This document shows positions 1,091 to 20,661 of a stretch of DNA of 64,000 nt, piece by piece. Every line of letters begins with the position of its first letter. Position 1 is the stretch's first letter. Made by a program: the position numbers and the translations under genes. The notes under the pieces were generated by a model. The model was given only the letters and a program-made list of their open reading frames with translations. It did no database searches and was not told the origin of the DNA. Origin of the DNA: an uncultured bacterium (lineage in GTDB: Bacteria; Verrucomicrobiota; Verrucomicrobiia; Limisphaerales; UBA11358); assembly GCA_963723125.1 (NCBI GenBank), contig CAVRPQ010000004.1, positions 3,908-67,907 of the forward strand, read 5' to 3'.

Positions 1091-1512
1091 AGCTGGTCAG
1101 GCCAGAGAACAAATGTCGCTGGACGAAGAAGGTCGCTTTCGGATGGCGAGCCGTTGCCATGCGGAAAGAGTATCAATTTAGTTTTGCGAAGAAAAGCCTC
1201 CGCCACCCCTTCAGGGTGGAAATAATTTTGGGACGATTACGCCAATGGTGATGAGGGTAATGCGTGTTTCCATAAAACCCGGCTGCATGGTGGATTCGAA
1301 TGTGCGCCGAAGGGACTGACGCGTCAACTTTTTGAAAAGGAAGCGACCTATCCTCTACACGAATAAGACTCTGCCGTTTCCCGTGGCTCCGCTATTGCGA
1401 GCTTAACCTGAAAAAACGGCTGTCGTTGTTGAGCATGAGCGTGACCTACATATTGCCGTTGGAATTGACTGAATTTGACATTCAAGCATGAAACCAAGCT
1501 CACGGCGCCGCA

Positions 1513-1953
1513 TTAACTGGTAATCAGCAACCGTCTTTGAACACGGGACAATGTGCCAAGCCAGACGCGCGGGGTCTGCATGGCAATGCCGAATGGTTTC
1601 TCCAACACTGTCAAATCCCGGTCGCGCGCAATGACCGTGCGTGCTCCTGCGGCCAATGCGGCCTCAATGAATTTGTCATCCTTGGGATCACGGCAGACCT
1701 TTTGCCCTAACGGCACTGGCGTAACCCACACGGCCGATGTTCGCAGGGTGTCCAGCCACGATCGGGTTTCCGTATCAAAATCCTGCTCCTGCTTCACCCG
1801 TTCCAGCACGGTTTCGTATTCGGTGAAGATTTCTTCGCTCATCACTGGCACCAGGATGCCATGCAGCCACGCTGTCAGGCACAGGTGCGGCTCGTGACGC
1901 CAGAAAACACCCGCGACAAAAACGCCGGTGTCAATGACGGCCGTCTTCATCAC
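1513..1953 (-). CDS. PIN-domain toxin (type II toxin-antitoxin system)
   Basis: 146 aa. N-terminal VIDTGVFVAG and C-terminal RDPKDDKFIEAALAAGARTVIARDRDL are typical of the PIN-family putative toxin. It overlaps the upstream antitoxin ORF by 23 nt. Confidence 0.75.
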   Translation of the reverse strand: MMKTAVIDTGVFVAGVFWRHEPHLCLTAWLHGILVPVMSEEIFTEYETVLERVKQEQDFDTETRSWLDTLRTSAVWVTPVPLGQKVCRDPKDDKFIEAALAAGARTVIARDRDLTVLEKPFGIAMQTPRVWLGTLSRVQRRLLITS

Positions 1954-2203
1954 GCACTTGGCGTAACGCTTGATTTACAATGGCTGCCGCCTGGCTGGCC
2001 GAATGCCTGCTCGCGGGTGTTTGTTTCAGGAGTTTTGCGATGGCCCGTTTTCCGGGTGCCTTCACCGGGCGGATGAGCAAGCCATCCTTACCCAGGTCGA
2101 ACACGTTCAGCGGCCCGCCACGCTCCAATCCTTCCCGGCGACACCAGTCCAGCGGAAAAATAGTCTGGCGTTTCTCGGTCAAAGTCATGGTCGTTGCTTT
2201 CAT
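1931..2203 (-). CDS. AbrB/MazE/SpoVT-family antitoxin
   Basis: 90 aa. The pattern TEKRQTIFPLDWCRREGLERGGPLNVFDLGKDGLLIRP resembles a swapped-hairpin AbrB-like fold. It is translationally overlapped with the PIN gene. Confidence 0.6.
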   Translation of the reverse strand: MKATTMTLTEKRQTIFPLDWCRREGLERGGPLNVFDLGKDGLLIRPVKAPGKRAIAKLLKQTPASRHSASQAAAIVNQALRQVRDEDGRH

Positions 2204-2621
2204 GGTAATAATCCATTACCTGAAAACAGCCGTTTGTCAAGGGTTTTTATGGGTTTATCTGCATAAAATGACACTTCATTTTGTGTAATGTTTACGCAAA
2301 ACCAGCGGTCTTTTCCGGCAGACTCTCCAATTGCAGATGAACAATAAGAAACATCGTAGAGCGACAATGCAAGTGGTGACGGTGATACACCACATCACGG
2401 GCAATTCCGATTAAATTACCGCATGAATAATTCCATGTTCATTTTGGATTCAGCCGGCCAACGGCGTGGGGAAAGCGGGGGACGCATTTCGTGTCCCAAC
2501 GACACCTTTGACGATTCGGCGTCGGGTAAAATGACAAAACGGTAAATGATAGCAGACAGGAACTTTAAAGCTGTGTGCGAAGCACGCAGAGCCTTTGGGA
2601 AGACTGATAAGATTGCGCCCT

Positions 2622-5351: not shown

Positions 5352-5694
5352 GCCGGGCCATAATCCCTGTTTTACCAGTGACATCAAAAGTGCCGCTCTG
5401 AACGTGTATGCAGACGACATGCACAATTACCTACTCCCTTATGCGCAAATTTTGTCTGCTGAAAGGATTTCCAATCCTGCGCTGGAACAGGAGCCAGATG
5501 CCCCGCCGGAAAAAATGTTGATCCGCTTTGCCCAGGCTGTTGTTGCGGTGCTGGGCAGTGGACTCGACGCTGTGGAGCGTGGCCTTCAACAATATGAATT
5601 GAAATTTGTGAAGTCGGCTCCACGACGTTTCGCCGGGTTGTTGAACACCCACATCGCCGCCGTCACCATCACTTTTACCAAGGAGAACGCATGA
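5311..5694 (+). CDS. hypothetical protein (127 aa), translationally coupled to the downstream HTH gene
   Basis: ATG-initiated ORF overlapping the relaxase 3' end. Its TGA stop overlaps the ATG of the next gene (ATGA at 5691-5694). No recognisable motif. Confidence 0.4.
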   Translation: MNTNEKPLTESAFRPGHNPCFTSDIKSAALNVYADDMHNYLLPYAQILSAERISNPALEQEPDAPPEKMLIRFAQAVVAVLGSGLDAVERGLQQYELKFVKSAPRRFAGLLNTHIAAVTITFTKENA

Positions 5695-5990
5695 ACCAAG
5701 AATCATCATTAAATCTACAGGCATTGGGAAAATATCCCGTCGTCATGACCAAGGAGAAAGTGGCCGAAGCGTTGGGCGTGGCCACGCATACCATTCCGCC
5801 ACTGGTGCGGTCGGGCCTGCTCAAGCCTCTCGGCCATCCGGGGCGTTATTGCGTGAAGCATTTTTCGCGTGACGCGCTCGCAGAGAAATTTGCCAGCCCA
5901 GAATGGCTCGATAAAGTGGCGGCGGCCATTCACCGGCACTGGCGCAACAAGAACGCGCGGAAGCGGGCGCGGCAGGCTCAAGCGGCGTGA
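5691..5990 (+). CDS. MGE-type helix-turn-helix DNA-binding protein (excisionase/AlpA-like), copy 1
   Basis: 99 aa. MTKEKVAEALGVATHTIPPLVRSGLLKPLG is HTH-like. It has a basic C-terminal tail and is paralogous to 14013..14324. Confidence 0.55.
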   Translation: MNQESSLNLQALGKYPVVMTKEKVAEALGVATHTIPPLVRSGLLKPLGHPGRYCVKHFSRDALAEKFASPEWLDKVAAAIHRHWRNKNARKRARQAQAA

Positions 5991-6084
5991 GCACGGGCGA
6001 GTCCGTTACGCAGATGCGACCGGCGGCACGGACACTGACGCGACTGGTTTTGACACGGCGCACTGGATTTTCTAGCCTCCGCGC

Positions 6085-6228
6085 ATGGTAAAAACGGTTA
6101 CTACGAATGAAACCGTTGTCGCTTCACGGGTGAAACCCTCCGCCTTCCTCGACAGTCACTACGTCAAGGTCATGCTCGACCAGATTATCGGGGAGAAAAA
6201 TTTCGTAAATGAAATTGTTTGGATTTGA
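6085..6228 (+). pseudogene. 47-codon fragment of an N6/N4 DNA methyltransferase (Mod/type IIS-like)
   Basis: My translation: MVKTVTTNETVVASRVKPSAFLDSHYVKVMLDQIIGEKNFVNEIVWI*. The ..HYhK.hLDeIhGEeNFvNEIhW.. segment is a conserved block of PF01555-type methyltransferases. All catalytic motifs are absent. Confidence 0.4.
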
Positions 6229-6255
6229 ATTGCAGCGCACATAAAAGGAAACAAA

Positions 6256-7638
6256 ATGAACACGATCAATGAACAACAGCGCAAACGGGCGATTGAAGTC
6301 ATGAATGAATATCTTTCTGCGCCTCCTGGGCCAGAAGGAAAAACTCCCGTAGAACTGAGCGAAGAACTTGATGCAAACCGAGTCAAGCTCATTGAGAAAG
6401 AATTAAAGCCACTCCTTGCCGATTACCTCGCGGGCAAGGTGATGCTTGCAGACTTCAAATCTAAAGCAGATGGAATAAACAAACGCAACGAGCTTTGGGG
6501 GTTCAAAGGAATCAAGGGCCAAATGTTCTTCAATATGGTGGTCAATGTTGCCGATGACGCAAAAGAATGTGACCAAGAACTAAAATCTGCATTGGCCGTT
6601 CCGACCAATGAACAAATCGCATCCAGCAGAATCAAAACATTCGCAAGCTACATCAAGCGGCTGGGAGAACAATGGGTTAGTGAAGGAAATACTCGATACG
6701 GTGCGCCAAAAGTGGGAAGCGTTCCTTTCTTCCTGTCTTATTTTTGGCAGATTCAGGATCGTGAAGTGTGGCCAGTTTATTACACCAACGCAGTGCAGAC
6801 GATGACCGATCTAAATATCTGGCAGCCATCAGACGACATTGCGGAGGATTATTTGGCGTTCAAGCAGATTCACGAAGTTCTGTCGAAGCTGTTCACCGAG
6901 ACAAGCAAGCGGCCTTTTGGACTTTATGATGTTGAACATGTCTTTTGGTTCAAGGGTGGCAATCCATACGACGCGGTCAAAGCAGAAGAGAAGGCGGCTG
7001 AACCTACACTGATCAAGCCTCCTATAAAACTTCCCATATCTGCCGACCAAGGCCATTTGCCCGAAAGCTACGTCCCACCGATTGTTGCCATCCTCCCAGC
7101 AATGGCCCGCCACGAAGAATGGCTGGTTGAGGCGGCGAAGCGTTCCGGCACGAGTCTTGAGAGAGCTTTTGAAAAAAACATTGATGCTGCGCTTACGATA
7201 TTAGGTTACGAAACTAAACTTTTGGGCCAAGGACAAGGACGCGTGCCAGATGGACGGGCTTTAGCTCTCGACGAGAACTATGCCATTTTGTGGGATGGGA
7301 AGGTTCGTGGAAACTCATACAGCTTGGGCACTGACGACCGGACGATCCGTGAATACATTACCACTCAAAGCCGCGAGTTGAGTCGCCGCTATCGAAATAT
7401 TTACTACATCATTGTTTCGAGCGCCTTCGCCGATGATTTTGACGACACAATTGCTTCGATCAAAATGGAAACAGAGGTAAGCGAAGTTATTTTACTCGAT
7501 GCAGAAGCGCTGGTGGCAATTGTGGAGGCAAAATTGCGTGCTCCGCTCCAGTTAACATTAGGGCCAGATGGCATCCAGCGTTTCTTTACAAAAAGTGGTG
7601 GCTTAACGGCAGCAATGGTTCGCGAGTATTTAGCTTAG
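6256..7638 (+). CDS. Protein with a C-terminal FokI-like PD-(D/E)XK cleavage domain and an uncharacterised ~300-aa N-terminal domain
   Basis: 460 aa. ERAFEKNIDAALTILGYETKLLGQGQGRVPDGRALALDENYAILWDGKVRGNSYSLGTDDRTIREYI parallels my memory of the FokI cleavage domain (FEMKVMEFF..YGYRGKHLGGSRKPDGAIY..VDTKAYSGGYNLPIGQADEMQRYV). The region is visibly AT-richer than the backbone. Confidence 0.55.
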   Translation: MNTINEQQRKRAIEVMNEYLSAPPGPEGKTPVELSEELDANRVKLIEKELKPLLADYLAGKVMLADFKSKADGINKRNELWGFKGIKGQMFFNMVVNVADDAKECDQELKSALAVPTNEQIASSRIKTFASYIKRLGEQWVSEGNTRYGAPKVGSVPFFLSYFWQIQDREVWPVYYTNAVQTMTDLNIWQPSDDIAEDYLAFKQIHEVLSKLFTETSKRPFGLYDVEHVFWFKGGNPYDAVKAEEKAAEPTLIKPPIKLPISADQGHLPESYVPPIVAILPAMARHEEWLVEAAKRSGTSLERAFEKNIDAALTILGYETKLLGQGQGRVPDGRALALDENYAILWDGKVRGNSYSLGTDDRTIREYITTQSRELSRRYRNIYYIIVSSAFADDFDDTIASIKMETEVSEVILLDAEALVAIVEAKLRAPLQLTLGPDGIQRFFTKSGGLTAAMVREYLA

Positions 7639-7653
7639 TTTACAATAGATATA

Positions 7654-8352
7654 ATGGCTGACCCAATTCCAATTTATCGCTATTTAGATTCTGATGCGGC
7701 ATTGAAAACACTTGTGGCCGGGAAGTTCAGAGTCGGGCTGTTATCCAAGTTCAATGATCCATTTGAGTGGAATCTCGGTTTTACTGGCGTGGCTACTCCG
7801 CCGGAGCAAGAATTTGCAAAGAATTACGCTAGCGAACATCATCGGTTTTTAGAGACATGGATGGGGATTTTAAGTTTCAGCAAGACAATTTCCGATCCAA
7901 CGCTCTGGTCGCTTTATGCTGATAAGCATTCAGGTGTTGCTTTTGAAGTGCAACATCCTTGGAATGACGACCATATTATAAAAATGGAATATCCACCGGA
8001 GCGTCCCGTTTTGGATTTTGTCCGACTGCGCAGTATCCATGACAAAAACGAAAGGGATAAATACCTTTTGTCACTTCTTAATGGTTTAATGAGGCAGAAA
8101 TCACCAAGTTGGTCTTTTGAGCAGGAATACAGATTGCAGATTGATCTAAATGACCAAGCGCATTGCTGCCAGTTAGCTGACGGTAGGCATCATTGGCAAA
8201 TTTATCGTGGATTGTTCAAACGGTTGATTCTTGGATTTCAATGCCCAATAGAAGAGGCAACAGCAAGAAAGTTGCTGGACATGAATGGATTTACCAGCAC
8301 GAATGTTGTGAGAGCCAAATTGTGTCAGGAGACTTATTCGGTTATTATTTAG
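7654..8352 (+). CDS. DUF2971-family protein
   Basis: 232 aa. The N-terminus IYRYLDSDAALKTLVAGKFRVGLLSKFNDPFEW matches the DUF2971 signature (YRY..l..l....l.fs....fNDPfE). It starts 16 nt after the previous stop, so the two are probably an operon. Confidence 0.7.
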   Translation: MADPIPIYRYLDSDAALKTLVAGKFRVGLLSKFNDPFEWNLGFTGVATPPEQEFAKNYASEHHRFLETWMGILSFSKTISDPTLWSLYADKHSGVAFEVQHPWNDDHIIKMEYPPERPVLDFVRLRSIHDKNERDKYLLSLLNGLMRQKSPSWSFEQEYRLQIDLNDQAHCCQLADGRHHWQIYRGLFKRLILGFQCPIEEATARKLLDMNGFTSTNVVRAKLCQETYSVII

Positions 8353-8501
8353 GTTCGCATGTTTTCCTCAACCATGACTGGCATTGCTATTTCGCCCATG
8401 CCTGTGCGTCATGGCCAAACGCCTGCGCGACGTTTGCGGTCTGCCGGAAAGCGAACCGCTCCGCGCTCCGCCCGCCCGTTTCAGAGGTCACGCTTCCCAT
8501 T

Positions 8502-8771
8502 TCAATCCATGCCATCATCCGGCGGGTGATATTCTTGGATGATGATTGTTGGTGGCGGTGGTGGTGTGTGCGGCTGAATGATAATGCCGATGCCGGCGCT
8601 GACGTGCGGTTGATTGGGGAATTTCCGGCGCAACCCGCCGCTGAATATCCAGGCCAGCAGAATCAGGGACAGCCAGACGAACGCGAGAAACAGATAAACT
8701 CCCCATTCCGAGATGATCCAATCGAGAAAATGGAACACCGGGTCGAGCACTGTGGCAGGATTCAAGTTCAT
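8502..8771 (-). CDS. small membrane protein with a proline-rich tail
   Basis: 89 aa with one clear hydrophobic span (GVYLFLAFVWLSLILLAWIF) and a PPPPP tract. It lies directly downstream of the integrase. Confidence 0.35.
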   Translation of the reverse strand: MNLNPATVLDPVFHFLDWIISEWGVYLFLAFVWLSLILLAWIFSGGLRRKFPNQPHVSAGIGIIIQPHTPPPPPTIIIQEYHPPDDGMD

Positions 8772-8785
8772 GTGATTTCCTCCGG

Positions 8786-9846
8786 TTATGCCTTGGCCAT
8801 CACTGGCTCAATGGTCTTGGACATTTCCGCGAACTTGGTGCGCATCCGTTCAAATTCGCTCAACGGCGGCAGTTCCACCTGCGCCTGCCGGGCATACGCG
8901 CGATGGATGGCTTTGCTGTTATGTCCCAGCGCCTCCTGCGCGAACCGTTCGGGATAACCCGCCTTTTTCGCGCGTTCCGCCCACGCATACCGATACGAAT
9001 GCAAGCTGACACCCTTGATGCCCAAGCCCGCGAGCGTTGGTGAAATTCCGTCGCCCGGTCGCCGGAACGAACCGAGCGCAGATACGGAAACAGCGGGCCG
9101 CTCCCCGGCAAATCCCGGAGAATTTCCGCCACTTCATCATCGAAGCGCATGATGGCAATCGAGCCGGTCTTTTTGCGCGCAAAACTGATGACGTTGTGTT
9201 CCCAATCAATGTTTTCAGCTTCGAGGCCCGCCAGATCGGACTGCGACGCGCCCAGGTGCCACGCCAGTTTATAGAACGCTTTGCGTTCGGGATTCAGTTC
9301 GCGGGTGACGATGGCCTGATGTTCCTCCCAGGTGATGGCGCGCTTGTCCTTGAACTCAACTTTCGGCCACTGCCGTTTTACGATGACCGGCCACGGCAGC
9401 CAGGTCATGTCCAGGGCGAAGTTGTGGATGCGCCGCAAATAAACATTGGTCGAAACTTTTCCGGTTTCGAGCACGCGCAAAAAGTTTTCCGGCCGCGTTT
9501 CCAAAACCGGCAGGTGACGAATCAAGTCAAACGCCTTGTCCTTGATGGCGGTCTGCCAGCGGTGCTGGGTCTCGCCTTTTTTGAGTTTGACCATTTCCTC
9601 CATGACGAACTGCCAGTTGCGGGTGGCAATCTGCGGGTCGCTGGCGGCGAGATAGGCGCGGGCGATTTGCAGGTTCACGGCGGGCTGCTGCTGCGCTTCG
9701 CCGCGCGAATGGAACAACCGCAGCGCCGTGGCGCGGTCGGTGGTGTGCAAGCTGTCCTGCTTGCCGGTCACGTCATCGTGAATGTAGTAGCGTCCGCCTT
9801 TTTTGCGGCGGTAGAGCCGGTATCGTTGTCTCATAACTGTATTCAC
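8786..9846 (-). pseudogene. Tyrosine recombinase/integrase with a frameshift near 9030-9045
   Basis: ORF 8860..9846 carries the N-terminal SAM-like and core-binding part. ORF 8786..9025, in another frame, carries the catalytic C-terminus (GVSLHSYRYAWAERA..ALGHNS..HRAY = H-x-x-R, H and Y motifs). Confidence 0.75.
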
Positions 9847-10148
9847 AGCGATGAGTTTACGACGATTGATCTCGACTCCGGCAGGGAGCAGGTGGGAGTT
9901 ACGCAGGGCAGGCCAGAGTTAAATCCTGCTGGCACTTCCGCTGGCACTCGTCTGTGGAAGTTGACCAAACCCTACAGTTCCAACTGGTTAGGTTTGGAGG
10001 CGAGGGTCGGAATCGGCCATTTATCCCCGCGTTTGCAGTTCAAATATGCCTGATTTCATTGGGAATTCAAGCATATTCTGTCACTACCCACCCATACCGT
10101 TTCTAACTCGTTTGGTGTCCGTTTTGGTGTCCGTTTGCGACTCCAGAT

Positions 10149-11714
10149 TTATCCGGTTGGGGTTTGGCTAATCACGCTGTGCAACCACTTCTTCCCGTCT
10201 TCTGTGATCTGGTAACGCTGCAAGCGACTTTGTGGTTTGTCTGGAATCGTTCGCCCAAGCCAGCCCTTGCCGATAAGCGCGTTGAGATAATTTTCGCGGA
10301 ATGTCTGTCGGTGTTTGACGCCGACAAGCGCCTGAATTTCACCGGCCTTACGCGGTTGCTCACAGAACTGGAGAATCTGCACTGCAACTTGGCCGGTGAC
10401 TTGGCCGGTGACTTGGCCGGTGACTTGGCCGGTCGCTAGACGTTTCCGTTCCATGGACTCTTTGACAAATTCAGGATGGAGCGGCAAGCGCACCAGAAAA
10501 TAAGTCCGGTCATCGTCAGACTCGAACACGGGCTGCGGAGAACCATTCACTCGCAACGCCTTCAACATTTTTGGAATTCCAGTGCCTCGACCTTCGGTGA
10601 GGCTGAGTTCTTTCAAAAATTCGCCAATGCGCCGGTTGCGATACCGCCGCGTTGCAAAGCGCCCGGATTGAAGTTCCTTGATGCTGACTGAACGATCCAG
10701 CCCCGGATAGCTGGCCACGGTGATTTCATCTGGCAGAACGCGGACTTCAATCGGCTCCCGGATTTCGTAGCTACGGTGATAAACCGCATTTACTACGGCT
10801 TCCTCCAGTGCTGCATAGGGCACATTGAAAAAACGGTCAGCTTCCGGCCGGTCGCCGTGTTTTACCACACGTTCTTCAATCACGGCGTTTTTCAAAAATG
10901 TCAGAGCGTCTTTGAGGATCACGTCCAATGGGCCAGCGAATGTCTTCTCCGTAAAAGTGTCGCCGCCTGGCCCTTCTGGAAATTGCACCACATCAATCTG
11001 CGTTTGAGGGAAAAACTTTTGTGGTGCCGAGTTGAAAAACATCAGACCGACGTTCAACGGGTGCATCGCTTCGGCGGGACCGTCGGCAATTCGCATCTGA
11101 CGGCACAACTGGGCAAAATCCATCGTGCTGGAATCGGCCAGCAAGTCGCTGCCGACTTCGCGCAGAAAATTTTGAATCAGCGAAAGCTTGAGATCGTTCA
11201 AAGAGGCACTGTGATGGATGCGGTCATCGAACGGAACCGTGGCCGCCAGGCTGACCAACTCGACCTCCTCTTCATGTTTGGCTTTGACCGTGGCTGAGCC
11301 TTTGCGAATGAAGTAAGCGAATTCGCGGTTGCCTTTTGCCAGCGACACGGGCGCTTTGTAAGGCCGGGTCTGCCCGCCGGGACACCACAGCACGAGAATG
11401 TGCTTTTGCTGGACCACATAAGGCGCAATCACCGGATGATAGTGAGGCTGTATCCGATGCCCAATTTCCAGAATCTCTTTTTGAATGGCGTCCAGTTTGC
11501 TGGCAAGCAATCCTGCCGGTGGCAAAATTGGCTGTCCCTGATTCTCCGCCACGCCGATGAGAATGTAGCCGCCGCCCAGGTTGTGAAAATCATTGGCGAA
11601 GGCGCACATCGTGTGCAGGACGGCTTCCGGGTTCCAGCCCTGCTTAAATTCCAAACGCTCCCACTCCACGGTTTGTCCGTGCAAAACGTCATCAATGTTA
11701 ATCGGCAAGTGCAT
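10149..11714 (-). CDS. Schlafen/AlbA_2 domain + HATPase_c_4-like ATPase + C-terminal wHTH protein (often annotated as RecG-like / putative transcriptional regulator)
   Basis: VEWERLEFKQGW..MCAFANDFHNLGGGYILIGV (AlbA_2), AVVNAVYHRSYEIREPIEVRVLPDEITVASYPG (ATPase_c_4-like) and a C-terminal winged-helix-like tail. The likely start is MHLPINIDD at 11714. Confidence 0.7.
   Translation of the reverse strand: MHLPINIDDVLHGQTVEWERLEFKQGWNPEAVLHTMCAFANDFHNLGGGYILIGVAENQGQPILPPAGLLASKLDAIQKEILEIGHRIQPHYHPVIAPYVVQQKHILVLWCPGGQTRPYKAPVSLAKGNREFAYFIRKGSATVKAKHEEEVELVSLAATVPFDDRIHHSASLNDLKLSLIQNFLREVGSDLLADSSTMDFAQLCRQMRIADGPAEAMHPLNVGLMFFNSAPQKFFPQTQIDVVQFPEGPGGDTFTEKTFAGPLDVILKDALTFLKNAVIEERVVKHGDRPEADRFFNVPYAALEEAVVNAVYHRSYEIREPIEVRVLPDEITVASYPGLDRSVSIKELQSGRFATRRYRNRRIGEFLKELSLTEGRGTGIPKMLKALRVNGSPQPVFESDDDRTYFLVRLPLHPEFVKESMERKRLATGQVTGQVTGQVTGQVAVQILQFCEQPRKAGEIQALVGVKHRQTFRENYLNALIGKGWLGRTIPDKPQSRLQRYQITEDGKKWLHSVISQTPTG
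10389..10433. repeat. 12-bp in-frame tandem repeat TTGGCCGGTGAC x3.75, encoding (TGQV)n
   Basis: Read directly from the sequence. It lies between the ATPase and wHTH parts of the 10149..11714 gene. Confidence 0.95.
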
Positions 11715-12313
11715 TGCAGGCCGAGCATAGGCCAAAATCGTTCCCGTGAAAATCAGATAGTTTTCCGCCCTAAACAACATCCTGAAATTGTTCGGAATTG
11801 CCGATGAGTTTTGAAGCCAGACATGCAGACTCCGAGCGTGTTTCCTAAGCGCGATCTGTTTTTGGCGAGGGGAGCGCAGTCAATGTGGAGGCGACGGGCG
11901 GCAGGGCGCACTACATTGACGGCGCGAGCGAGCCATATAATTGAAGCGCGAGGCACGCTCGGTGTGCGAATGCAAAAATCCAGCACGCTTTGCCAAAATT
12001 CCGCGATTGTTTCAAAATGGTAATCAACATAACCTCTCTGCGTTAGCAAAAAATCAAAACGACCAGAAAACATATTTAACAAAACTCATTTCGCGTAGCT
12101 TCGGCTGCTGTCCACTACGAAACTGGTAATTTCAACTTGGAAGACAGCGCTTGACGCACGCCCCGCTTGGGGCGTGCCGAAAGCGTTCTTCCAAGGGCAT
12201 ACCAGTGCCTGTAGTGGGACGTGATTAAGCACGTCCCTCTTGTTTTTAGGCACTCGTTCCCTTGGAGACAGTCAACCAGACAGGGCTGATTCGCACGCGA
12301 GCGAATTCAGCCC

Positions 12314-12720
12314 ATGCCTCATCTCTCATGGAATGAAGTCCGCGCCCGCGCCATCCGTTTTTCACGGAACTGGAGCGACGCCACTTCCGAGCGTGCCGAC
12401 AAGCAGACATTCTACAATGAATTCTTCGATGTCTTCGGCATACGCCGAGCGTCTGTCGCAGCATTCGAGACGAACGTCCGTAATCTACAAGGCTACACCA
12501 ACGCCATTGACTTGCTATGGCGTGGCAAGCTCATAGTCGAACACAAAATCCGCCGTTCATTGGCGCAAAATTCCAAAATGATGAACAACGTGCGGACATG
12601 GATTCCGTTGCGGACGATGTTGAAAATGGCGGTCTGCTTGATTACGTCACAGGCTGGTATTTTAAAGCTGCGGAATATATCCAAGGCACGCGCGTTGTGG
12701 TTGGTTTGGCACGTCAGCGG
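12314..12720 (+). pseudogene. Remnant of an MmeI/PglX-like N6-adenine DNA methyltransferase, internally deleted and truncated
   Basis: MPHLSWNEVRARAIRFSRNW..ERADKQTFYNEFFDVFGIRRASVAAFE..IDLLWRGKLIVEHK is the family N-terminus. After VEHK the sequence jumps, with a frame change, directly to NPPFIGAKFQNDEQRADM..LLDYVTGWYFKAAEYIQGTR (motif IV region) and then decays. Confidence 0.6.
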
Positions 12721-12803
12721 AGCAAGCCTGGCAAACGCTGCTGGTTAAAGTCGCATTGTATTTCCTGCGCGGGGAGTGTTACGTCGCTAAATCCGACACC
12801 ATC

Positions 12804-13673
12804 ATGCTCTGGCGTGAAAAAGACCGCCAGCGGGACAGACAACTGGCACAAGCCAGACCACCTCGCGGAATTCGCTGCGTCGCCTGTTTTTCCGACATGG
12901 TTTGTGAGGAGAAAAATTTGCACGACCGGGACGACGGTAGCGAACAAGTGCTTTTTTATTTTATTTGCCCCAAGTGTGATTCCCGGCGTGCTTTTTATGA
13001 AGACGGCACAGAATTCCGACGCAAAAAGGTTTTTTGCACGCAGTGTCAGAGTGAAGCCAAAATCGAATATCAGCGCGCCGGTAAAGAAATCAGCATCGTC
13101 ACGACGTGTCCGAAATGCGGCAAGGTTGAAACAGAATCCTTGACCGTAGAAAAGCCGCCGCCACTGGATGAAAATTATGCGGCTGACCGGGAGCGATTCT
13201 GCATGTCCCAGGAAGAAGGTCGGGAATATGACAGTTACCGGGTAAGTGCTGAAATTTTCCAGAGGCAACAGGCAGAACGGGATCTGCGCGAAAAGCGGCA
13301 GAACTTGTATGACGAGATTTCAAAACTAAAAAAACTCACGGCGATGGATTTGCAAAATCTCCTGATCCCGGCATTGGAAAGGGAAAGATTTATCCGGCTT
13401 GATCTCGGAATGCCGGCCATCAAACGGGATGTGCAGATGTCCTTTTGCGTTCAGGATGCCAAGTCGGGACGCAGTGATCACGACAGCATCAAAGATTTGA
13501 AAAATGCCATCGAGGAAACGCTTGACGGGACGAATTGGCGATTGATGAGCAGTGGCATCAGTTATCATTTGGGAGTTCTCAATGGATATTTGCGCGGGCT
13601 GGAAACAGAAAAAGACCTGTTGGCACTGGTGCGTATGCGCCTCAAAAAACAAGCCGGCTCGAATTTATCATAG
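12804..13673 (+). CDS. Double zinc-ribbon protein of unknown function
   Basis: Four CxxC pairs (CVAC, CPKC, CTQC, CPKC) followed by a helical C-terminal half. The start is uncertain: TTG at 12756 or ATG at 12804. Confidence 0.45.
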   Translation: MLWREKDRQRDRQLAQARPPRGIRCVACFSDMVCEEKNLHDRDDGSEQVLFYFICPKCDSRRAFYEDGTEFRRKKVFCTQCQSEAKIEYQRAGKEISIVTTCPKCGKVETESLTVEKPPPLDENYAADRERFCMSQEEGREYDSYRVSAEIFQRQQAERDLREKRQNLYDEISKLKKLTAMDLQNLLIPALERERFIRLDLGMPAIKRDVQMSFCVQDAKSGRSDHDSIKDLKNAIEETLDGTNWRLMSSGISYHLGVLNGYLRGLETEKDLLALVRMRLKKQAGSNLS

Positions 13674-14012
13674 TGTCGAGGACTTGATGGCTAGGCCAAA
13701 ATGCTTGGTTTCATTTTGTGTCCCAAGGACAACTTCATCGTTCCGAAATTTGCCAGAATGGGAGACGTGAATAACAAATTGAAAATCATTTGCGATTGAA
13801 AAGCGGAATTCATTTTGTTCAAAAATTGAACAATGCGGTTTCGGAAATGTGGGATAATGCGGTCATGAATTTTATTTTGTGTATGTGATACACCGCCCGC
13901 CCGCCGGGATTTTGGCACAGTGACAAAAGCTGTGGACTTCATTTTTGCAAAGTTTGCAAAAGCGGAGCCTGAATTTCCGCCAGAATATAAGCCGAAGAAC
14001 AAATTGAAAGTT

Positions 14013-14324
14013 ATGAGCAACGAATTCAAAGCCGTGTTGGACTTGGCAGCGTCGCTGCCAACGCGTGTGAATAAGGAAATGGCCGCTAAATATCTCGGCT
14101 TCAAAGGCGATGATATTACGATATTGATTGCGCGTGGACTCCTGAAGCCGTTGGGCCGCCCGGTGCAAAACAGCGACAAATACTTTGCCAAGGTGAAGCT
14201 TATTGAATTAGGACAAGATGCAGAATGGTTGTCACGGGCGACACTGGCTGTCAGCCAGCATTGGAAGGATAAGAACGCTCGTAAATCCAAAAAAACAAAT
14301 GGGGATGGGCAGCCAGTTGAATAA
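14013..14324 (+). CDS. MGE-type HTH DNA-binding protein, copy 2 (paralog of 5691..5990)
   Basis: LPTRVNKEMAAKYLGFKGDDITILIARGLLKPLGRP..WLSRATLAVSQHWKDKNARK aligns with copy 1 (..LLKPLGHP..WLDKVAAAIHRHWRNKNARK). The ATG at 14013 aligns with the start of the fragment at 19831. The stop lies 25 nt before CRISPR repeat 1. Confidence 0.55.
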   Translation: MSNEFKAVLDLAASLPTRVNKEMAAKYLGFKGDDITILIARGLLKPLGRPVQNSDKYFAKVKLIELGQDAEWLSRATLAVSQHWKDKNARKSKKTNGDGQPVE

Positions 14325-14349: not shown

Positions 14350-15872
14350 TCGCCTCAAGATTGCCGCAGTCGCGGCGACTGCGGCGTGCTTGCTACGTCG
14401 AGTGTGAAGCCGAACTCACCCGCCTCAAGATTGCCGCAGTCGCGGCGACTGCGGCGGCGGTCACGCTCCGATTCCGGTCCAATGGCAAGCCGCCTCAAGA
14501 TTGCCGCAGTCGCGGCGACTGCGGCTAGCCCTTGAATCTGGTCGTGCCAAAGCCTTTCTCCCGCCTCAAGATTGCCGCAGTCGCGGCGACTGCGGCGATT
14601 TGCACGGCGTTTTTTAGGATTCGAGAATTTGCCCGCCTCAAGATTGCCGCAGTCGCGGCGACTGCGGCTGGTTTGCTGTTTTCATAAATCGTCGCCGCGC
14701 GTCCGCCTCAAGATTGCCGCAGTCGCGGCGACTGCGGCAAAAGTCACCCTCAAATAACAACAAACCATGTATGCCGCCTCAAGATTGCCGCAGTCGCGGC
14801 GACTGCGGCAAAGACCAGCTACGGGAGCAGGGCGTGGTGGTGACCCGCCTCAAGATTGCCGCAGTCGCGGCGACTGCGGCCGTTGGTTGGCATCAGCATT
14901 GACATCACCCAAGCCCCGCCTCAAGATTGCCGCAGTCGCGGCGACTGCGGCGTGATGTATGGAAGCTCCAACGTCGGCGAGATGTGTCCGCCTCAAGATT
15001 GCCGCAGTCGCGGCGACTGCGGCTGAATTGGCCGTTAGATTGAATCGTGTGATAAATCCGCCTCAAGATTGCCGCAGTCGCGGCGACTGCGGCCTCACCT
15101 CCCGCGATGCCATTGTGCCGGTGATTGACCGCCTCAAGATTGCCGCAGTCGCGGCGACTGCGGCTGAGCCACGGGCGACTAAAGATATGGAACTCACACC
15201 GCCTCAAGATTGCCGCAGTCGCGGCGACTGCGGCATCACGCCTTGCGCCATTTATCCCGGCCGCCGGCTCCGCCTCAAGATTGCCGCAGTCGCGGCGACT
15301 GCGGCAAGAATGGGACGGCGATGACGAAGGCGACCCGATTCCGCCTCAAGATTGCCGCAGTCGCGGCGACTGCGGCATCAACGGATGTTCGCGCCACTCG
15401 GCCTCGACCCCCGCCTCAAGATTGCCGCAGTCGCGGCGACTGCGGCATGCAGCGGCTCGTTTAGGGTATTCACAACAACCACCGCCTCAAGATTGCCGCA
15501 GTCGCGGCGACTGCGGCCAAAAGTACAATCTGGCAGCACAACGTCATTGGCTCCGCCTCAAGATTGCCGCAGTCGCGGCGACTGCGGCCGGCGCTAAATT
15601 GAAAGAGCGAAAATGGCAAGCTCCGCCTCAAGATTGCCGCAGTCGCGGCGACTGCGGCTTCTTTGTTTTTTATTTTTAATTCGTCGAGCGGACCCGCCTC
15701 AAGATTGCCGCAGTCGCGGCGACTGCGGCGGCGACATCGCCGATTTCTTCTCTGTCTCCTTTTGGCCGCCTCAAGATTGCCGCAGTCGCGGCGACTGCGG
15801 CGGAAATTTCGATCTGATTCGCACGACGGATTTTCTCCGCCTCAAGATTGCCGCAGTCGCGGCGACTGCGGC
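14350..15872 (-). CRISPR. CRISPR array: 22 x 36-bp repeats (CCGCCTCAAGATTGCCGCAGTCGCGGCGACTGCGGC on the + strand) and 21 unique spacers of 34-36 bp
   Basis: Repeat starts: 14350, 14420, 14490, 14561, 14633, 14703, 14774, 14845, 14916, 14988, 15058, 15129, 15199, 15270, 15341, 15411, 15482, 15553, 15623, 15694, 15766, 15837. All repeats are identical except that the outermost base of repeat 1 is T instead of C. That suggests a trailer at the left and a leader on the cas2 side, hence minus-strand transcription (inferred). Confidence 0.97.
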
Positions 15873-16191
15873 ACGCTCCCTGGAACACCTTGAGAATTAA
15901 CGCCTGCCGCAGCATTTTGCGAGCGTGAGGCAGGTTGGAGCATTAACACATAAATGAGTCGGGAAACAATCATTGCCAATAGCCTATCAATCCAAGCGAA
16001 TCTGTTGTGCGAGCGTCCGTGCAGGCCAGTGCCAGCATTTCCGCGCTCGCACTGTAATCGCCGCATTCAGGCGCAGTCGTCGCGATTTCAATGAGCAATC
16101 ATGGTTAGCCAATGGCGGAAGCTAACTGGTCGGTGGCGGAGTTCGCCGGGGTTTATTCAACGCCTTTCGGAAAAACTTGCAAGCTTGAAAA
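15873..16191 (-). other. CRISPR leader / candidate tracrRNA region between the array and cas2
   Basis: 319-bp non-coding gap. It holds a perfect 9-bp-stem hairpin GTGCGAGCG..CGCTCGCAC at 16007-16051 and repeat-like segments at 15888-15934 and 16069-16095. Confidence 0.35.
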
Positions 16192-16482
16192 TCAAATAAT
16201 CGTTACGCGCGAACGGACTTCGTAAGGCAATCCCATCGCGTCAATAATCAAACTCGCGTCTTTGGAACTCGCGCCCAGCGATACAAACAAAACCTGATCT
16301 TCGTCGTGATTGAGCAAGTCCTGAAGCTCGGCCTTTAATTTTGCCAGACGCAAATCATCCAGCGGACATTCAAAAACCGAGTATTGCAGTCGCACACCAA
16401 AACCTTCCAGCGAGCGCGCCACTTTTCGCAGCCGCTTCGGGTCGCTGATGTCGTAGCTCACCAGATAGCGGATGCGGCTCAT
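16192..16482 (-). CDS. cas2: CRISPR-associated endoribonuclease Cas2
   Basis: 96 aa: MSRIRYLVSYDISDPKRLRKVARSLEGFGVRLQYSVFECPL.. is a typical Cas2. Its ATG overlaps the cas4-cas1 TGA (ATGA at 16479-16482). The listed 218-aa ORF is an over-extension. Confidence 0.9.
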   Translation of the reverse strand: MSRIRYLVSYDISDPKRLRKVARSLEGFGVRLQYSVFECPLDDLRLAKLKAELQDLLNHDEDQVLFVSLGASSKDASLIIDAMGLPYEVRSRVTII

Positions 16483-18293
16483 CGTGTGACAAATCCGTGA
16501 TAGGTCAGCGCCTCGCCGCGCACGAACCGCCACAATTGCCTTGCCTGCACTTCGAGCATCCGGCGATACGCCATTTTGTAGCTGAATTCCGGGTGGCTGA
16601 CTTCCGTGTCCAGTCGTCGAAACCACCCTTCCCAAAATGGTCGCCGGCCTTTGTCGGTTAAAAACATTCCGTTCGCACTTTTGATGAAGTCCTCCGGGCC
16701 AAGTTCGCCACGATTGATGAGGCTGATGGCCACGCTGTCGGCGATGAGCGGGCGGAATTCCTCCATCAAATCCAGTGCCAGTGCCGGACGGCCATAGCGA
16801 GGCTGGTGCATGAATCCGAGAAACGGATCGAGTCCAACCGAATAACAAACGCCGGTCAATTCCTTCGCCAGCATGGAATAACCGAGCGAAAGCAGGGCGT
16901 TCACGGGATCACGCGGCGGACGGCGATTGCGCCCGCGCCAGTCAAATTTCCAGTCGTCACGCTGTTTCAGCATGGACTCGAATTGCTCGAAATAAAGCGC
17001 CGCGGCGCTGCCCTCGACGCCGAGCAACGCCGTCAAGTCGCGTGCCGATTCCGTGGAATCGCGGAAGTTCGCCATCAAGCTCGTCACCCGGTCCGGCACG
17101 TCGCCGTTGCGCATGAGCATCACGCGCTGATTATGGATTTTAGCGCGGATGACTTCCCGTGCGAGTTGCAGACGCACGCCCGGAAGTTCAAACAGCCGAT
17201 ATTGTCCGCGCCGCGCATCAACGCCGCTGGCTGGCAATCCGCCCAACATTCCGAGAAAACGTCCTGCCGGCGAAAAATAGGAAACGTCAATACCCAATTC
17301 CAGGCACGTCGAAACAGCCTGCGCCGTCATTTGAACCGCGCCGTAGCAATAAATTGCCCGCACCTGCTGGCCGGGCAGTTTACGCACATCTTCACCCTTC
17401 ACGCTGACGAGCAATTCATCTCCGCGCTGGCCGATTTGCGCGCCGGGTGTCTGCACCACCAACACCTCGCCATCGTCGCCTTCCGGTCGCGGCGGCTGCA
17501 ACGTCGGTTCCTTGTCCGTGGACTCGGCGGCAAAATCCAGTGCCTCAAGAATCCGGTCGCGGACGTCATCTTCGGATTGGGCGATGAAACTGAATTGAAT
17601 CTGTCCATCGGCGGGCGGCGCTTTACGCCGTTTCGACCACCAAAAAGATTCATTCGGAAGACATATCGGATAGGCGGAACAGCCGAGGCAGCGTGGATCG
17701 TTTTTAAGCGGGGGCGGGCAATGGCCGGAGGCGGCGAGCGCCTTTGCATCGGTAATGGCTTGCCGGGTTTTAGCCAACATTTCCTCATTGATTTCCACCG
17801 GCACACGGCGTTTGTCGGCGGCGTAGTAGATCACCGCGCCGGAAACCTTTACGCCGTGTTCCTGCAACAGCAGGGCATACGCGCCGACTTGCATTGTCTC
17901 CGGCTCGCGCGCTTCACGTTCGCCTTCGCTGTTGCGCCGGGCAGAACCCTTTTTGTAGTCCACAATTTGTGCGCCATCCGGCCCACCCTCCACCAAATCC
18001 ATTACACCAACAATGCCCAGCGATTCGCTTTCCAAGCGTAAGCTGCGAAGATGTGTTCCTTCCGGCAGATTTTCGCCCAAGGCTTTTGCCTTTTCTTCAT
18101 CCAGCCTGGACGGTGCGTCCACATTGCGATGCGTGGTTGAACCCGCAACCGTATCAGCGCTTTCCTGAAAAATGTTTTCAACCCACTGGAAATAAAACAG
18201 GCGAGGACAATAAACGTAATTGTTGAGACGACGCACCGGCATCACCGGCTGGGATTCCAGCCCGGCGTTGACTTGAATCGGCGCTTCGCTCAT
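16479..18293 (-). CDS. cas1: Cas4-Cas1 fusion protein (adaptation module typical of type V-B loci)
   Basis: 604 aa. The N-terminal Cas4 part has YCPRLFYF, the IVDYKKG RecB-nuclease motif and the CLGCSAYPIC Fe-S cysteines. The C-terminal Cas1 part has NALLSLGYSML..GLDPFLGFMHQPRYGRPALALDLMEEFRP. The reading frame is intact. Confidence 0.92.
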   Translation of the reverse strand: MSEAPIQVNAGLESQPVMPVRRLNNYVYCPRLFYFQWVENIFQESADTVAGSTTHRNVDAPSRLDEEKAKALGENLPEGTHLRSLRLESESLGIVGVMDLVEGGPDGAQIVDYKKGSARRNSEGEREAREPETMQVGAYALLLQEHGVKVSGAVIYYAADKRRVPVEINEEMLAKTRQAITDAKALAASGHCPPPLKNDPRCLGCSAYPICLPNESFWWSKRRKAPPADGQIQFSFIAQSEDDVRDRILEALDFAAESTDKEPTLQPPRPEGDDGEVLVVQTPGAQIGQRGDELLVSVKGEDVRKLPGQQVRAIYCYGAVQMTAQAVSTCLELGIDVSYFSPAGRFLGMLGGLPASGVDARRGQYRLFELPGVRLQLAREVIRAKIHNQRVMLMRNGDVPDRVTSLMANFRDSTESARDLTALLGVEGSAAALYFEQFESMLKQRDDWKFDWRGRNRRPPRDPVNALLSLGYSMLAKELTGVCYSVGLDPFLGFMHQPRYGRPALALDLMEEFRPLIADSVAISLINRGELGPEDFIKSANGMFLTDKGRRPFWEGWFRRLDTEVSHPEFSYKMAYRRMLEVQARQLWRFVRGEALTYHGFVTR

Positions 18294-18299
18294 GGCTCG

Positions 18300-19679
18300 T
18301 TACCTTTTCCATTCCTTGGGTGGCTCAATTCCCCATGCTTCTAAACGCGCAAGGTTGATGGCTTCACAGCGTTTCCAAGATTGATCTTTGACGTAACCCC
18401 AAAGTGCTTTGCCACTAACCAAATGCTTGGGTTTGGGACAGTCGGGCGGAGAATCATGCAATGTTGCTGCGCCCCAATGTGTGCCGTTGAGGTTTGCAAA
18501 GTCGGCGAAAAAATTGGGATGGCGACTGTCACTAGCTTTCAATTCTGCTTTGGCGTCTTCCAACTTGATTTCAATGCCTTCCCGGTCGGTTTTATCAGAA
18601 GGAACATCAGATTTTTTCTGTTCCTCTTTCGGTGGCGGGTATTTTCGCTTTTCCTTTTCGCTGACCCAAAAGCGATCCGGTTTGCTCTCAACTGGTGTTG
18701 CCTCCGACGGCTTTGCTGGTTGTTTTTTCCGTTTTTCCTTCTTGGTTTTTGGCTTTGGTGGCGAACCAAATTCCCGCTCGGAACGTAGGCGCGAATGGAT
18801 GCTCCAAACGCGTGCGTCGGCCACGGCGCGTAAGGCGAGGTTTACAGCAGCATTGACGTCAGAATGAATCAAGCGCGCTTGTTTCATCTGGTTTTCTTCC
18901 AGCGTCACACCGCAGAACTGGATGACCGGGCGCTGCTGTTTCGGATTCGCCGCGTCTTTGGCCGGGCGTTTGTAGGTCGCATCGAGATTGGCCATCGGGA
19001 CGAAGATGCTGCCTCCGGCCTCCGGCACAAGGAGTGTGTGAAACTTTTGACCCTTGGACTTTCCATCCCGGTTCTCGTTCGATTTGCGCACTTGTTCGAA
19101 AACAAGCTCCCATTGCTTAGACTTTTCCTCGCGCTTTTTCTTCTGTTCCGGCGTTTCCTTCGTTTCGTCCCCTGGCTTGCGGACTTTCCACTTCCACTTG
19201 GATTCAGACAGTGATTGTAACGAAAGCTCTGTTGCGCGGAAACCCGCCACACCCGTTCGGGAACAGAAGCGAGAGGAGTAAGCTGCCGGTGTTTCTACGA
19301 GCGGAATTCCAAACAGTTCGCACATCCCGCTCCCGTTAGCATCTTTGAGCTTATCTCGAATTGCCCGGTGACACCATTTCATCAGGCGGCTGTTTTCGCG
19401 CGGTGCGCGGCCTTGGGTGGTGCGATAGCGGCTCAAGTCTTCAATGACGATGAAATCCACGATGCCACGCCACTTGTTCCCTTTCTCCGCTTCCACAGGG
19501 TGTCCCTTGTCATCAATCTTCACATATTCCCCGTGACTGTCTTTAGCCTCGCGCATTGCGTGCTCCACGTCATCTTTGGGTTTGGCCTTTTCTTCCAGCC
19601 TCAAACCTAGCGCTTCGGCAAGAATCATGTGCGCAGTCTGGTTGCGCCGCTGTTCCTTTATGTCGTCGAGCTTGGCCAA
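18300..19679 (-). pseudogene. cas12b: Cas12b (C2c1)-like effector, C-terminal third only (RuvC-II, Nuc-like region, RuvC-III, C-terminal tail); 5' ~two-thirds of the gene absent
   Basis: DDIKEQRRNQTAHMILAEALG, FIVIEDLSRY (RuvC-II Glu), ENSRLMKWCHRAIRDKL, ETPAAYSSRFCSRTGVAGFRA and LIHSDVNAAVNLALRA (RuvC-III Asp) match my memory of AacCas12b (HAKEDRLKKLADRIIMEALG; LLEELSEY; ENNQLMQWSHRGV; MYAAFSSRFDARTGAPGIRC; HADLNAAQNL). There is no RuvC-I motif. The frame is closed by a stop at 19722-19724, the first start-like codon is TTG at 19679, and only ~200 bp separate it from rph. Confidence 0.75.
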
Positions 19680-19705
19680 AATCGTCGGGCATGGATCGGG
19701 AAAGT

Positions 19706-19831
19706 CATCAATACTTGAATGTCACTCACCGCGAAGCCGAGCAGCTTTGCTGTACCCGCGACATCCAGCCGTGCCGGCAAATGTCTTGCCGCCTATGTGG
19801 CCAGTACCGCTTGCGTCAGGGAGTCAGTCAT
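19706..19831 (-). pseudogene. Fragment (first ~42 codons, in-frame TAG at 19793-19795) of the MGE-type HTH gene, copy 3, abutting the cas12b truncation point
   Basis: My minus-strand translation MTDSLTQAVLAT*AARHLPARLDVAGTAKLLGFAVSDIQVLM aligns with copy 2 MSNEFKAVLDLAASLPTRVNKEMAAKYLGFKGDDITILI. Confidence 0.45.
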
Positions 19832-19923
19832 ATTCTGGTTTTTGGTCTCAGTTGCCAGCCGGGTCCATTTGCGTTGGTTTTGCTTTTCCTTGAAGCCGTT
19901 CGCGTCTAGTATCGCCAGCGTTT

Positions 19924-20661
19924 ATGGCAGAACCCACTCGCGCCGACGGGCGCACCGCAAAGGAACTTCGCCCGTTGCGCTTTCAAAACCACATCGCGCC
20001 GCATGCCGCCGGCTCCACGCTCATCGAATGGGGCAATACGCGCGTCATTTGCGGTGTGACCATCGAGGAAGTCGTGCCGCGCTGGATGAAGGAGCAAAAC
20101 GTCAAGGGCGGCTGGATCACCGCCGAGTATTCCATGCTCCCCTATTCCACCCTGGAACGCAAACCGCGCGACGCCAGCCGCGGAAAAATTGACGGGCGGG
20201 CACAGGAAATCCAGCGGCTCATTGGCCGCGCCCTGCGCGCGGTGATTGACCTGGAAAAACTCGGCGAACGCACGGTTTGGGTGGATTGCGACGTGCTCCA
20301 AGCCGACGGCGGCACGCGCACTGCCGCCATCACCGGCGCCTACGTGGCGTTGTGCATCGCCATCCGGCGATTGATTGCCTCCGGCAAGGTGACGGACAAT
20401 CCCATTCTCCATGCCGTCGCCGCCGCCAGCGTGGGCATCGTGAACAACCAGCCCTTGCTGGATCTTTGTTACACCGAGGACGTGGCGGCGGCCGTGGACA
20501 TGAACCTGGTGATGAATTCCGCCGGCGAATTCATTGAGCTTCAAGGCACGGGCGAGCAGGCCACCTTCACCGAGTCACAACTGGCCGATTTGCTCGCGCT
20601 TGGCAAGACCGGCATCCGTAAATTGCTCACCGCACAAGAGGAAGCGTTGGCAGCAGCCTGA
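19924..20661 (+). CDS. rph: Ribonuclease PH
   Basis: 245 aa: RADGRTAKELRPLRF..GSTLIEWGNTRVICGV..DCDVLQADGGTRTAAITGAYVAL. Confidence 0.93.
   Translation: MAEPTRADGRTAKELRPLRFQNHIAPHAAGSTLIEWGNTRVICGVTIEEVVPRWMKEQNVKGGWITAEYSMLPYSTLERKPRDASRGKIDGRAQEIQRLIGRALRAVIDLEKLGERTVWVDCDVLQADGGTRTAAITGAYVALCIAIRRLIASGKVTDNPILHAVAAASVGIVNNQPLLDLCYTEDVAAAVDMNLVMNSAGEFIELQGTGEQATFTESQLADLLALGKTGIRKLLTAQEEALAAA

Follow-up and report, generated by a model that had tools for sequence, protein, structure and literature searches.

Partial or degenerate CRISPR-Cas loci, in which the effector has been lost or broken and the adaptation genes and/or the array are kept, form a common category in surveys. Among type V-B effectors, AacCas12b serves as the prototype and ChCas12b (PDB 9KLN, 1496 aa) as the solved relative. 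Cas12b needs all three RuvC segments as well as the REC and WED lobes, and mutation of D570, E848 or D977 abolishes cleavage; in ChCas12b, RuvC is made up of residues 717–857, 1197–1270 and 1361–1378, and helical-II extends up to residue 1196 (PMC12204704). Acquisition of spacers by the V-B Cas4/1-Cas2 module proceeds without Cas12b (PMC9419969).

The closest counterparts of the locus described here are V-B loci of Verrucomicrobiota that encode very large Cas12b proteins, for example L012 (1728 aa, the closest full-length relative retrieved) and L011 (1718 aa), both with the same tight operon arrangement. The locus lies within a 64-kb stretch of DNA, the whole of which was analysed and is referred to as the window (Table 1). 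Gene order and tight spacing are alike: cas12b is followed by a cas4-cas1 fusion, cas2, a conserved intergenic RNA element and the array. The repeats belong to the same 36-nt family ending TGAGGCGG, and the Cas4-Cas1 proteins are 89–91% identical to those of the two loci with full-length cas12b. In contrast to these loci, cas12b is reduced here to its last ~26%, so that the locus has no effector. Based on the adaptation genes, the repeat, the tracrRNA-like element and the remnant itself, the locus is assigned to the Verrucomicrobial large-Cas12b branch of V-B.

Table 1. Features of the locus and of its flanks (positions in the 64-kb window).
Feature	Position	Strand	Basis or remark
ResIII/Mrr fragment	320-1090		mobile island
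TrwC relaxase domain only	2595-3632		mobile island
HTH_17	5691-5954		mobile island
Integrase-like ORF	8860-9846		mobile island
Schlafen/AlbA_2-HATPase protein	10149-11780		mobile island
MmeI N-terminal domain only	12314-12748		mobile island
CRISPR array, 22 repeats x 36 nt	14350..15872	-	21 unique spacers of 34-36 nt
Putative tracrRNA gene	15985..16150	- (strand and ends inferred)	core conservation, covariation, repeat complementarity
cas2, intact, 96 aa	16192..16482	-	Pfam CRISPR_Cas2 E 2e-20; TIGR01573; gene call in L001
cas4-cas1 fusion, intact, 604 aa	16479..18293	-	NCBIfam cas4g_cas1g; Pfam Cas_Cas4 + Cas_Cas1
cas12b remnant (probable pseudogene)	18300..19721	-	open frame from past TGA 19724-19722 to stop 18302-18300
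Deletion junction (proposed)	19700..19730	.	end of Cas12b homology + in-frame TGA
rph (RNase PH)	19924-20661	+	Pfam RNase_PH + RNase_PH_C

The first-pass annotation of this DNA had taken the ORF at 18300–19679 (minus strand, 459 aa, TTG start) for the C-terminal third of a Cas12b protein retaining the RuvC-II Glu, a Nuc-like segment and the RuvC-III Asp. Profile and alignment agree that it is such a C-terminal fragment; its size, however, was overstated, as the ORF amounts to roughly the final quarter (26%) of a protein of ~1700 aa. The NCBIfam Cas12b profile NF033949 is matched with 340 bits (E 3e-101), well over its cut-off of 150 bits, but only at profile positions 925–1252 of 1253; the signature gene of type V-B is thus recognised, but as a 3' remnant only. 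Pfam C2c1_RuvC-like also matches the ORF (E 3.7e-19). In tblastn, window positions 19709–18306 pair with L012 residues 1287–1727 at about 65–66% identity, and it is this alignment to the 1728-aa protein that gives the figure of ~26%. The relatives' Cas12b proteins are normally 1350–1730 aa long (exhaustive HMMER search, 1.84 billion representatives), and in every case the remnant pairs with their very C-terminal end, such as residues 1220–1672 of a 1675-aa protein.

The RuvC-II Glu is kept in the motif FIVIEDLS (E80, codon 19442–19440) and the RuvC-III Asp in HSDVNAAVNLA (D274, codon 18860–18858), and the Nuc segment AYSSRFCSRTG is carried as well. E80 and D274 align with E1220 and D1364 of ChCas12b, and the RuvC-II region aligns with that of AacCas12b and BthCas12b; the equivalences of the catalytic Glu and Asp residues among Cas12b proteins were taken from PMC12204704. 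On the domain map of ChCas12b, the remnant comprises the end of helical-II, RuvC-II, Nuc and RuvC-III. Absent are the OBD/WED, helical-I, RuvC-I, the bridge helix, most of helical-II and the PI domain. As the alignment starts at residue 1287 of 1728, the guide-RNA- and PAM-binding domains (WED/OBD, helical-I/REC1, bridge helix, helical-II) are missing or cut short, and the tripartite RuvC is incomplete, with only the Glu and the RuvC-III Asp in place. In L012, the motifs of RuvC-I (SVDLGQK), RuvC-II (IVIEDLS) and RuvC-III (HADVNAA) are found at positions 952, 1373 and 1559; in the relatives, RuvC-I (SVDLG) lies 333 residues upstream of the remnant's break point. This segment was found neither in the ORF nor anywhere in the 64-kb window. 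The absence of RuvC-I, WED, REC and PI reported at first pass is therefore upheld, and the two findings that could have overturned it, an ORF that is not Cas12b-like or one that does contain RuvC-I, were not made.

Searches of the 64 kb by tblastn with the N-terminal pieces of L005 and L003 and with full-length L012 and L011 did not find an N-terminal piece of cas12b. Neither other cas genes nor another effector were found in the window, the remaining large ORFs being housekeeping or mobile-element genes, so that the earlier description of a locus without an effector holds for the window. As the gene is truncated relative to its full-length orthologues and the locus does not contain the part that it lacks, it is classed as a probable pseudogene. 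Upstream, its frame is shut by the TGA at 19724–19722, as had been observed, and the 470 codons that follow contain no internal stop. The candidate starts are ATT at 19712 (470 aa, the start chosen by PGAP), TTG at 19679 (459 aa) and ATG at 19628 (442 aa); no ATG or GTG occurs before codon 18 of the ORF, and neither a Shine-Dalgarno-like sequence, in keeping with the earlier remark that the TTG start has no obvious ribosome-binding site, nor a sigma-70-like promoter was seen in the 214 nt that remain upstream. In GenBank, the 470-aa product bears the name 'type V CRISPR-associated protein Cas12b', as listed without 'partial'.

Two other groups of type V proteins invite comparison. Cas12k of the type V-K CRISPR-associated transposons (CAST) and other RuvC-inactivated Cas12 variants are likewise type V proteins without DNA cleavage. 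However, Cas12k-type effectors keep the WED, the REC and the full RuvC fold, in which the catalytic residues are replaced, and they have transposition or other genes as partners, whereas here the guide-binding three quarters are deleted, the remaining Glu and Asp are unchanged and there are no partner genes. Miniature type V effectors and TnpB (400–700 aa) resemble the remnant in size (459 aa) and through a weak match to the TNB/zinc-ribbon region, where Pfam Cas12f1-like_TNB reaches 20.8 bits and so falls short of its cut-off of 26.3. No NCBIfam model of TnpB or Cas12f matches the ORF and, unlike these proteins, the remnant is without WED and RuvC-I and is colinear with the C-terminus of large Cas12b. 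Failing the tests for both, it is predicted to be neither a functional Cas12b nor a miniature type V effector.

Cas12b homology stops at about 19709–19712 by the tblastn end-points and is followed by the in-frame TGA; across the break, the window reads SSIDDFPDPCP where the relatives read SRDDSIPDPCP. The first core gene past the junction is rph, which is divergent from the cas genes and whose start, placed at 19924 at first pass and confirmed here, lies 200–245 nt from the remnant's candidate starts. The rph neighbourhood is also found in L071 and L072. The 214 nt between junction and rph are unlike every cas12b locus compared, and the interval 19690–19930 gave matches, by blastn and tblastx, to the same strain only. 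The junction itself recurs in six other assemblies at 99.9–100% identity, namely GCA_049591015.1 (14.9 kb spanning the junction), GCA_052326835.1 (99.9%), GCA_052915865.1, GCA_052915805.1 and the Logan assemblies of SRR28022942 and SRR28042008. The contigs with the truncated form belong to one nearly clonal population. An intact cas12b allele at rph, or a closer full-length relative, was not found in the genome and metagenome collections or by exact look-up of rph. A mobile-element HTH gene at the junction was considered for the peptide at 19700–19790 (compare the ORFs at 13920–14324 and 5691–5954), but the similarity is not significant.

On its left flank, the locus looks to be at the edge of a degraded mobile island with several truncated genes (Table 1). 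The genomic surroundings of the related V-B loci are unrelated to each other, and in one case include an adjoining integrase and HTH_17 gene; these cassettes therefore move. Nothing in the window corresponds to the genes that lie upstream of cas12b in L011 and L012.

In all, the ORF is most probably what is left, at the 3' end, of a cas12b that once had its full length of ~1700 codons and became a pseudogene by an apparently recent deletion. A very recent deletion had been one of three explanations offered at first pass, and it is the one favoured here, given the absence of internal stops from the remnant and the intact state of the other components; both would be expected of an evolutionarily recent event. 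The deletion would have taken out ~3.9 kb at the promoter-proximal end (about codons 1–1286), and with them the coding sequence for the WED/OBD, helical-I, RuvC-I and its catalytic Asp, the bridge helix and the greater part of helical-II. Whatever separated cas12b from rph would have been lost too, leaving the in-frame stop at the junction. As no IS end, repeat or tRNA is found there, the deletion may have arisen by illegitimate recombination at the boundary between island and core. Judging from Cas12b structures, the remnant would be unable to bind a guide RNA or to complete the RuvC fold, and interference at the locus is predicted to be dead. Spacer acquisition could in principle continue, since V-B adaptation does not depend on Cas12b (PMC9419969), provided that the genes are still transcribed. 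Such transcription is doubtful, because the region upstream of the operon, probably together with its native promoter, is deleted and the 214 nt that remain contain no recognisable sigma-70-like promoter.

The other components of the locus are well preserved. Cas4-Cas1 scores 615 bits against NF049935 (cas4g_cas1g; cut-off 560 bits), and the combination of a Cas4-Cas1 fusion with Cas2 is that of a type V-B locus. A 6-nt gap separates the cas12b remnant from cas4-cas1, cas2 overlaps the end of cas4-cas1 by 4 nt, and about 320 nt of non-coding DNA lie between cas2 and the array; genes and spacing agree with the intact Cas4-Cas1, Cas2 and array in a tight operon that had been described. In the orientation of the cas genes, the repeat is GCCGCAGTCGCCGCGACTGCGGCAATCTTGAGGCGG. 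All but one of the 22 repeats are identical, the cas-distal copy deviating at its outer end. Two positions set the repeat apart from that of L011, and it follows the family pattern CAGTC...TGAGGCGG, which is common to seven relatives downstream of cas2, as expected of a V-B array of this clade. No spacer matches the rest of the window or the fetched loci, and self-targeting spacers as a cause of effector loss were accordingly set aside within that scope. Rfam gave only sub-threshold chance matches, to the repeats of the array.

In Cas12b tracrRNAs, as in the AacCas12b sgRNA, two segments on either side of a stem-loop pair with the repeat. The tracrRNA-like element between array and cas2 matches this layout. 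Its core is shared by five loci, among which the identity of the Cas12b C-termini falls to 34%, and it contains a putative anti-repeat, TCCGCC...TTGAAATCGCGACGACTGCGCC, complementary to the repeat. A perfect, covarying stem (GTTAGC/GCTAAC here) forms a hairpin with the loop CCGCC, the complement of the repeat 3' end, and RNAalifold places compensatory changes in 8 of 36 pairs. All components but the effector look functional.

It is this preservation that could speak for a locus with memory only. In that reading, its crRNAs and tracrRNA would serve a second, intact V-B effector encoded at another site of the genome or on a co-resident element, and selection would keep the adaptation module, the tracrRNA and the array despite the loss of the local effector. 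Repeats and adaptation modules are indeed shared across divergent effectors: L011 has a repeat with only 2 mismatches and a Cas4-Cas1 that is 91% identical, yet its Cas12b is just 34% identical. Likewise, L011 and L012 share 90% identity in Cas4-Cas1 and 34% in the Cas12b C-terminus. By these identities, the adaptation modules of the clade are judged far more conserved than the effectors, and a module served from elsewhere by a divergent Cas12b fits such a pattern. The independence of V-B adaptation from Cas12b (PMC9419969) is likewise in keeping with this reading. Finally, cas4-cas1 is under very strong purifying selection between strains: in the 561 nt of cas4-cas1 that adjoin the remnant in L070, a 1.3-kb JGI contig of a related strain (JGI 3300041809, 96% identical), 40 of 42 differing sites are synonymous (omega 0.012). 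However, this selection mostly reflects the history before the deletion, and intact parts are equally expected soon after such an event. A second cas12b or other effector was not found within the 64 kb, and the upstream region of the operon, probably with its promoter, is deleted. An effector supplied from elsewhere is thus rather unlikely.

Effector loss with retention of cas4-cas1 is seen at other loci besides the window, where independent cas12b lesions adjoin intact cas4-cas1 genes. L003, L004 and L053 share an internal deletion (reference residues 255–989) with a frameshift, L005 has a CAA-to-TAA nonsense codon relative to L016, and L007, which is also without an array, has a 5' truncation just past RuvC-I. 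Frameshifts occur in L008 and L010, which are long-read assemblies and in which they are perhaps assembly errors; L010 also has an IS91 insertion. This sample of lesions is biased, as the word-indexed search from which it comes listed only proteins below 800 aa and is hence fragment-enriched. Many matches in that listing start near the same point ('PGED'), and a naturally split, two-gene Cas12b was considered on this account. The idea was rejected because the listing misleads, the exhaustive search giving mostly full-length proteins, and because the cases resolve into a nonsense codon (L005), frameshifts (L008, L010) and deletions (L003, L007). An apparent further decay in another metagenome-assembled genome (P0245, 139 aa) proved to be a palindromic contig-end artefact.

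The remnant itself shows little sign of ageing. Its identity to the outgroup L005 (55%) is that of the intact L003 and L012 (53–56%), with no acceleration. In a leave-one-out comparison over 375 gap-free columns, it alters 7 of 148 otherwise invariant columns, against 0–6 in intact close relatives, and is at the upper edge of such violations but no outlier. Relative to L070, the remnant has nine changes, five synonymous and four non-synonymous (omega 0.22), where about seven non-synonymous changes would be expected if neutral (one-sided p about 0.03, with tiny counts). The density of mismatches to L070 jumps between 18301 and 18237, and therefore the remnant and cas4-cas1 do not share one history across these strains. 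Constraint on the remnant is hinted at by the omega of 0.22, but the figure is built on nine changes and on a contig that may or may not carry the truncation. Collectively, the data fit a deletion too recent for signs of decay, and do not demonstrate a retained function.

A function acquired by the fragment itself might be, for example, that of a regulator, of a partner of Cas4-Cas1/Cas2 or of a dominant-negative inhibitor of an incoming Cas12b. Apart from the omega value, the 470 open codons and the kept catalytic Glu and Asp would be in line with such a role, as would the C-terminal pieces without RuvC-I that are also kept in two other lineages (L003/L004/L053 and L007). However, the break points differ by lineage (reference residues about 978, 990 and 1287), so that no common product is conserved, and the cases compared come from the fragment-enriched listing. 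The fragment has no canonical start, ribosome-binding site or promoter, the truncated form is seen in one clonal population only, and an RNase H fold deprived of its first strands and of one catalytic Asp is unlikely to fold or cleave (PMC12204704). A function of its own is thus very unlikely for the fragment, and even taken together with a memory module served by a divergent Cas12b elsewhere, the two readings are improbable. Least credible of all is an assembly or binning artefact, in which a chimeric join near 19700 puts the 3' end of cas12b beside rph and its 5' part on another contig: although the sources are metagenome assemblies and the related contig end L069 has a palindromic artefact, the same junction is present at 99.9–100% identity in six assemblies of different accessions, several of which cover kilobases on either side, and the in-frame stop and non-cas sequence run smoothly into the rph promoter region, so that a misassembly, named at first pass as a finding that would refute the reading, is practically excluded.

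The remnant, probably left by deletion of most of cas12b, is not exceptional, because loci of this partial kind are frequent and independent cas12b lesions occur in several of the relatives. As in other partial loci, the interference gene is deleted and the rest persists, here at the edge of a decaying island. There is no essential difference from that category, except that the locus is unusually 'fresh', with every other component still looking functional. It is an ordinary case of decay of a CRISPR locus and reveals no new mechanism; its main value lies in annotation and ecology. Because of the name that the product bears in GenBank, the locus would be mis-scored as functional in counts of effectors or in the mining of Cas12b variants. 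For the biology of these systems, it captures cleanly how CRISPR-Cas decay begins, with the effector gone and the adaptation genes, the tracrRNA-like element and the array untouched, in a clade in which cas12b has seemingly been hit repeatedly and cas4-cas1 is highly conserved.

Independent cas12b lesions accompany intact cas4-cas1 genes in several relatives (loci L003/L004/L053, L005, L007, L008 and L010), and include deletion, truncation, a nonsense codon, frameshifts and an insertion. Three of the break points lie inside ~40 residues downstream of RuvC-I, near 'PGED', a clustering that may reflect chance or ascertainment.

Lesions of cas12b in relatives, the cas2-array element with its counterparts, and left-flank genes
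Feature	Locus	Position	Strand
Internal cas12b deletion, reference residues 255-989, RuvC-I included	L003/L004/L053	233-3171	
cas12b nonsense codon, CAA-to-TAA	L005	stop 9983-9985	
cas12b 5' truncation immediately past RuvC-I; no array at locus	L007	7914-9743	
cas12b frameshifts	L008, L010		
IS91 insertion close to cas12b 3' end	L010		
Conserved non-coding element between cas2 and array	window	15985-16150	(-)
Counterpart of element	L011	12140-12300	
Counterpart of element	L012	12997-13160	
Counterpart of element	L003	6255-6415	
Counterpart of element	L017	13505-13670	
ResIII/Mrr fragment	window, left flank		
TrwC relaxase domain	window, left flank		
HTH_17	window, left flank		
Integrase-like ORF	window, left flank		
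DUF2971	window, left flank		
Schlafen AlbA_2/HATPase_c_4 protein	window, left flank		
MmeI, N-terminal domain only	window	12314-12748	
HTH ORFs, paralogous pair	window	5691-5954; 13920-14324	

For the window remnant (18300-19712), the GenBank product MGA9779823.1 (470 aa, ATT start) is listed as 'type V CRISPR-associated protein Cas12b', a name without a 'partial' label. The 139-aa 'hypothetical protein' MGP8022255.1 is not a shorter cas12b remnant; it is a spurious product of the palindromic end of L069, a GCA_052326835.1 contig, where 10348-10420 is an artefact repeating the preceding 73 nt as their reverse complement. Further, a word-indexed protein search returned only proteins of <800 aa, and this kept every full-length relative out of view before an exhaustive search was run.

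The left flank of the locus (320-14324) has the look of a mobile or defence island in decay, in which several genes are reduced to domain-only fragments. Exactly at the deletion junction, a short frame (19700-19790, minus strand) reads 'HLPARLDVAGTAKLLGFAVSDIQVLM' and by eye looks like the HTH ORF at 13920-14324, a resemblance that was not significant (Pfam E 0.17; no tblastn match). The frame could be what is left of a mobile-element gene, or the likeness could have arisen by chance.

At the right end, 60775-63654 and probably the sequence past 64000 hold at least five tandem copies of a 645-nt unit (97-98% identity), missed in the tandem-repeat scan because the period exceeds the TRF limit. 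The units presumably encode a repetitive protein built of 215-aa modules.

In the window, L011, L012, L003 and L017, the element between cas2 and the array combines an anti-repeat with a covarying hairpin showing CCGCC, the complement of the CRISPR repeat 3' end. The element matched no Rfam family and is probably the tracrRNA of the large-Cas12b V-B clade.

When the window cas4-cas1 (16479-18293) was compared with L011 and L012 (full-length cas12b), the lesioned L003 and L070, a 1.3-kb contig, Cas4-Cas1 showed 85-91% identity between loci, whereas their Cas12b C-termini showed only 34-74%. Against L070, from a near-identical strain, nucleotide divergence rises from 1.3% to 7.5% at the cas12b/cas4 boundary, with the mismatch jump at window ~18240-18300. 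The sequence comparison points to cassette-like swapping of adaptation and effector modules.
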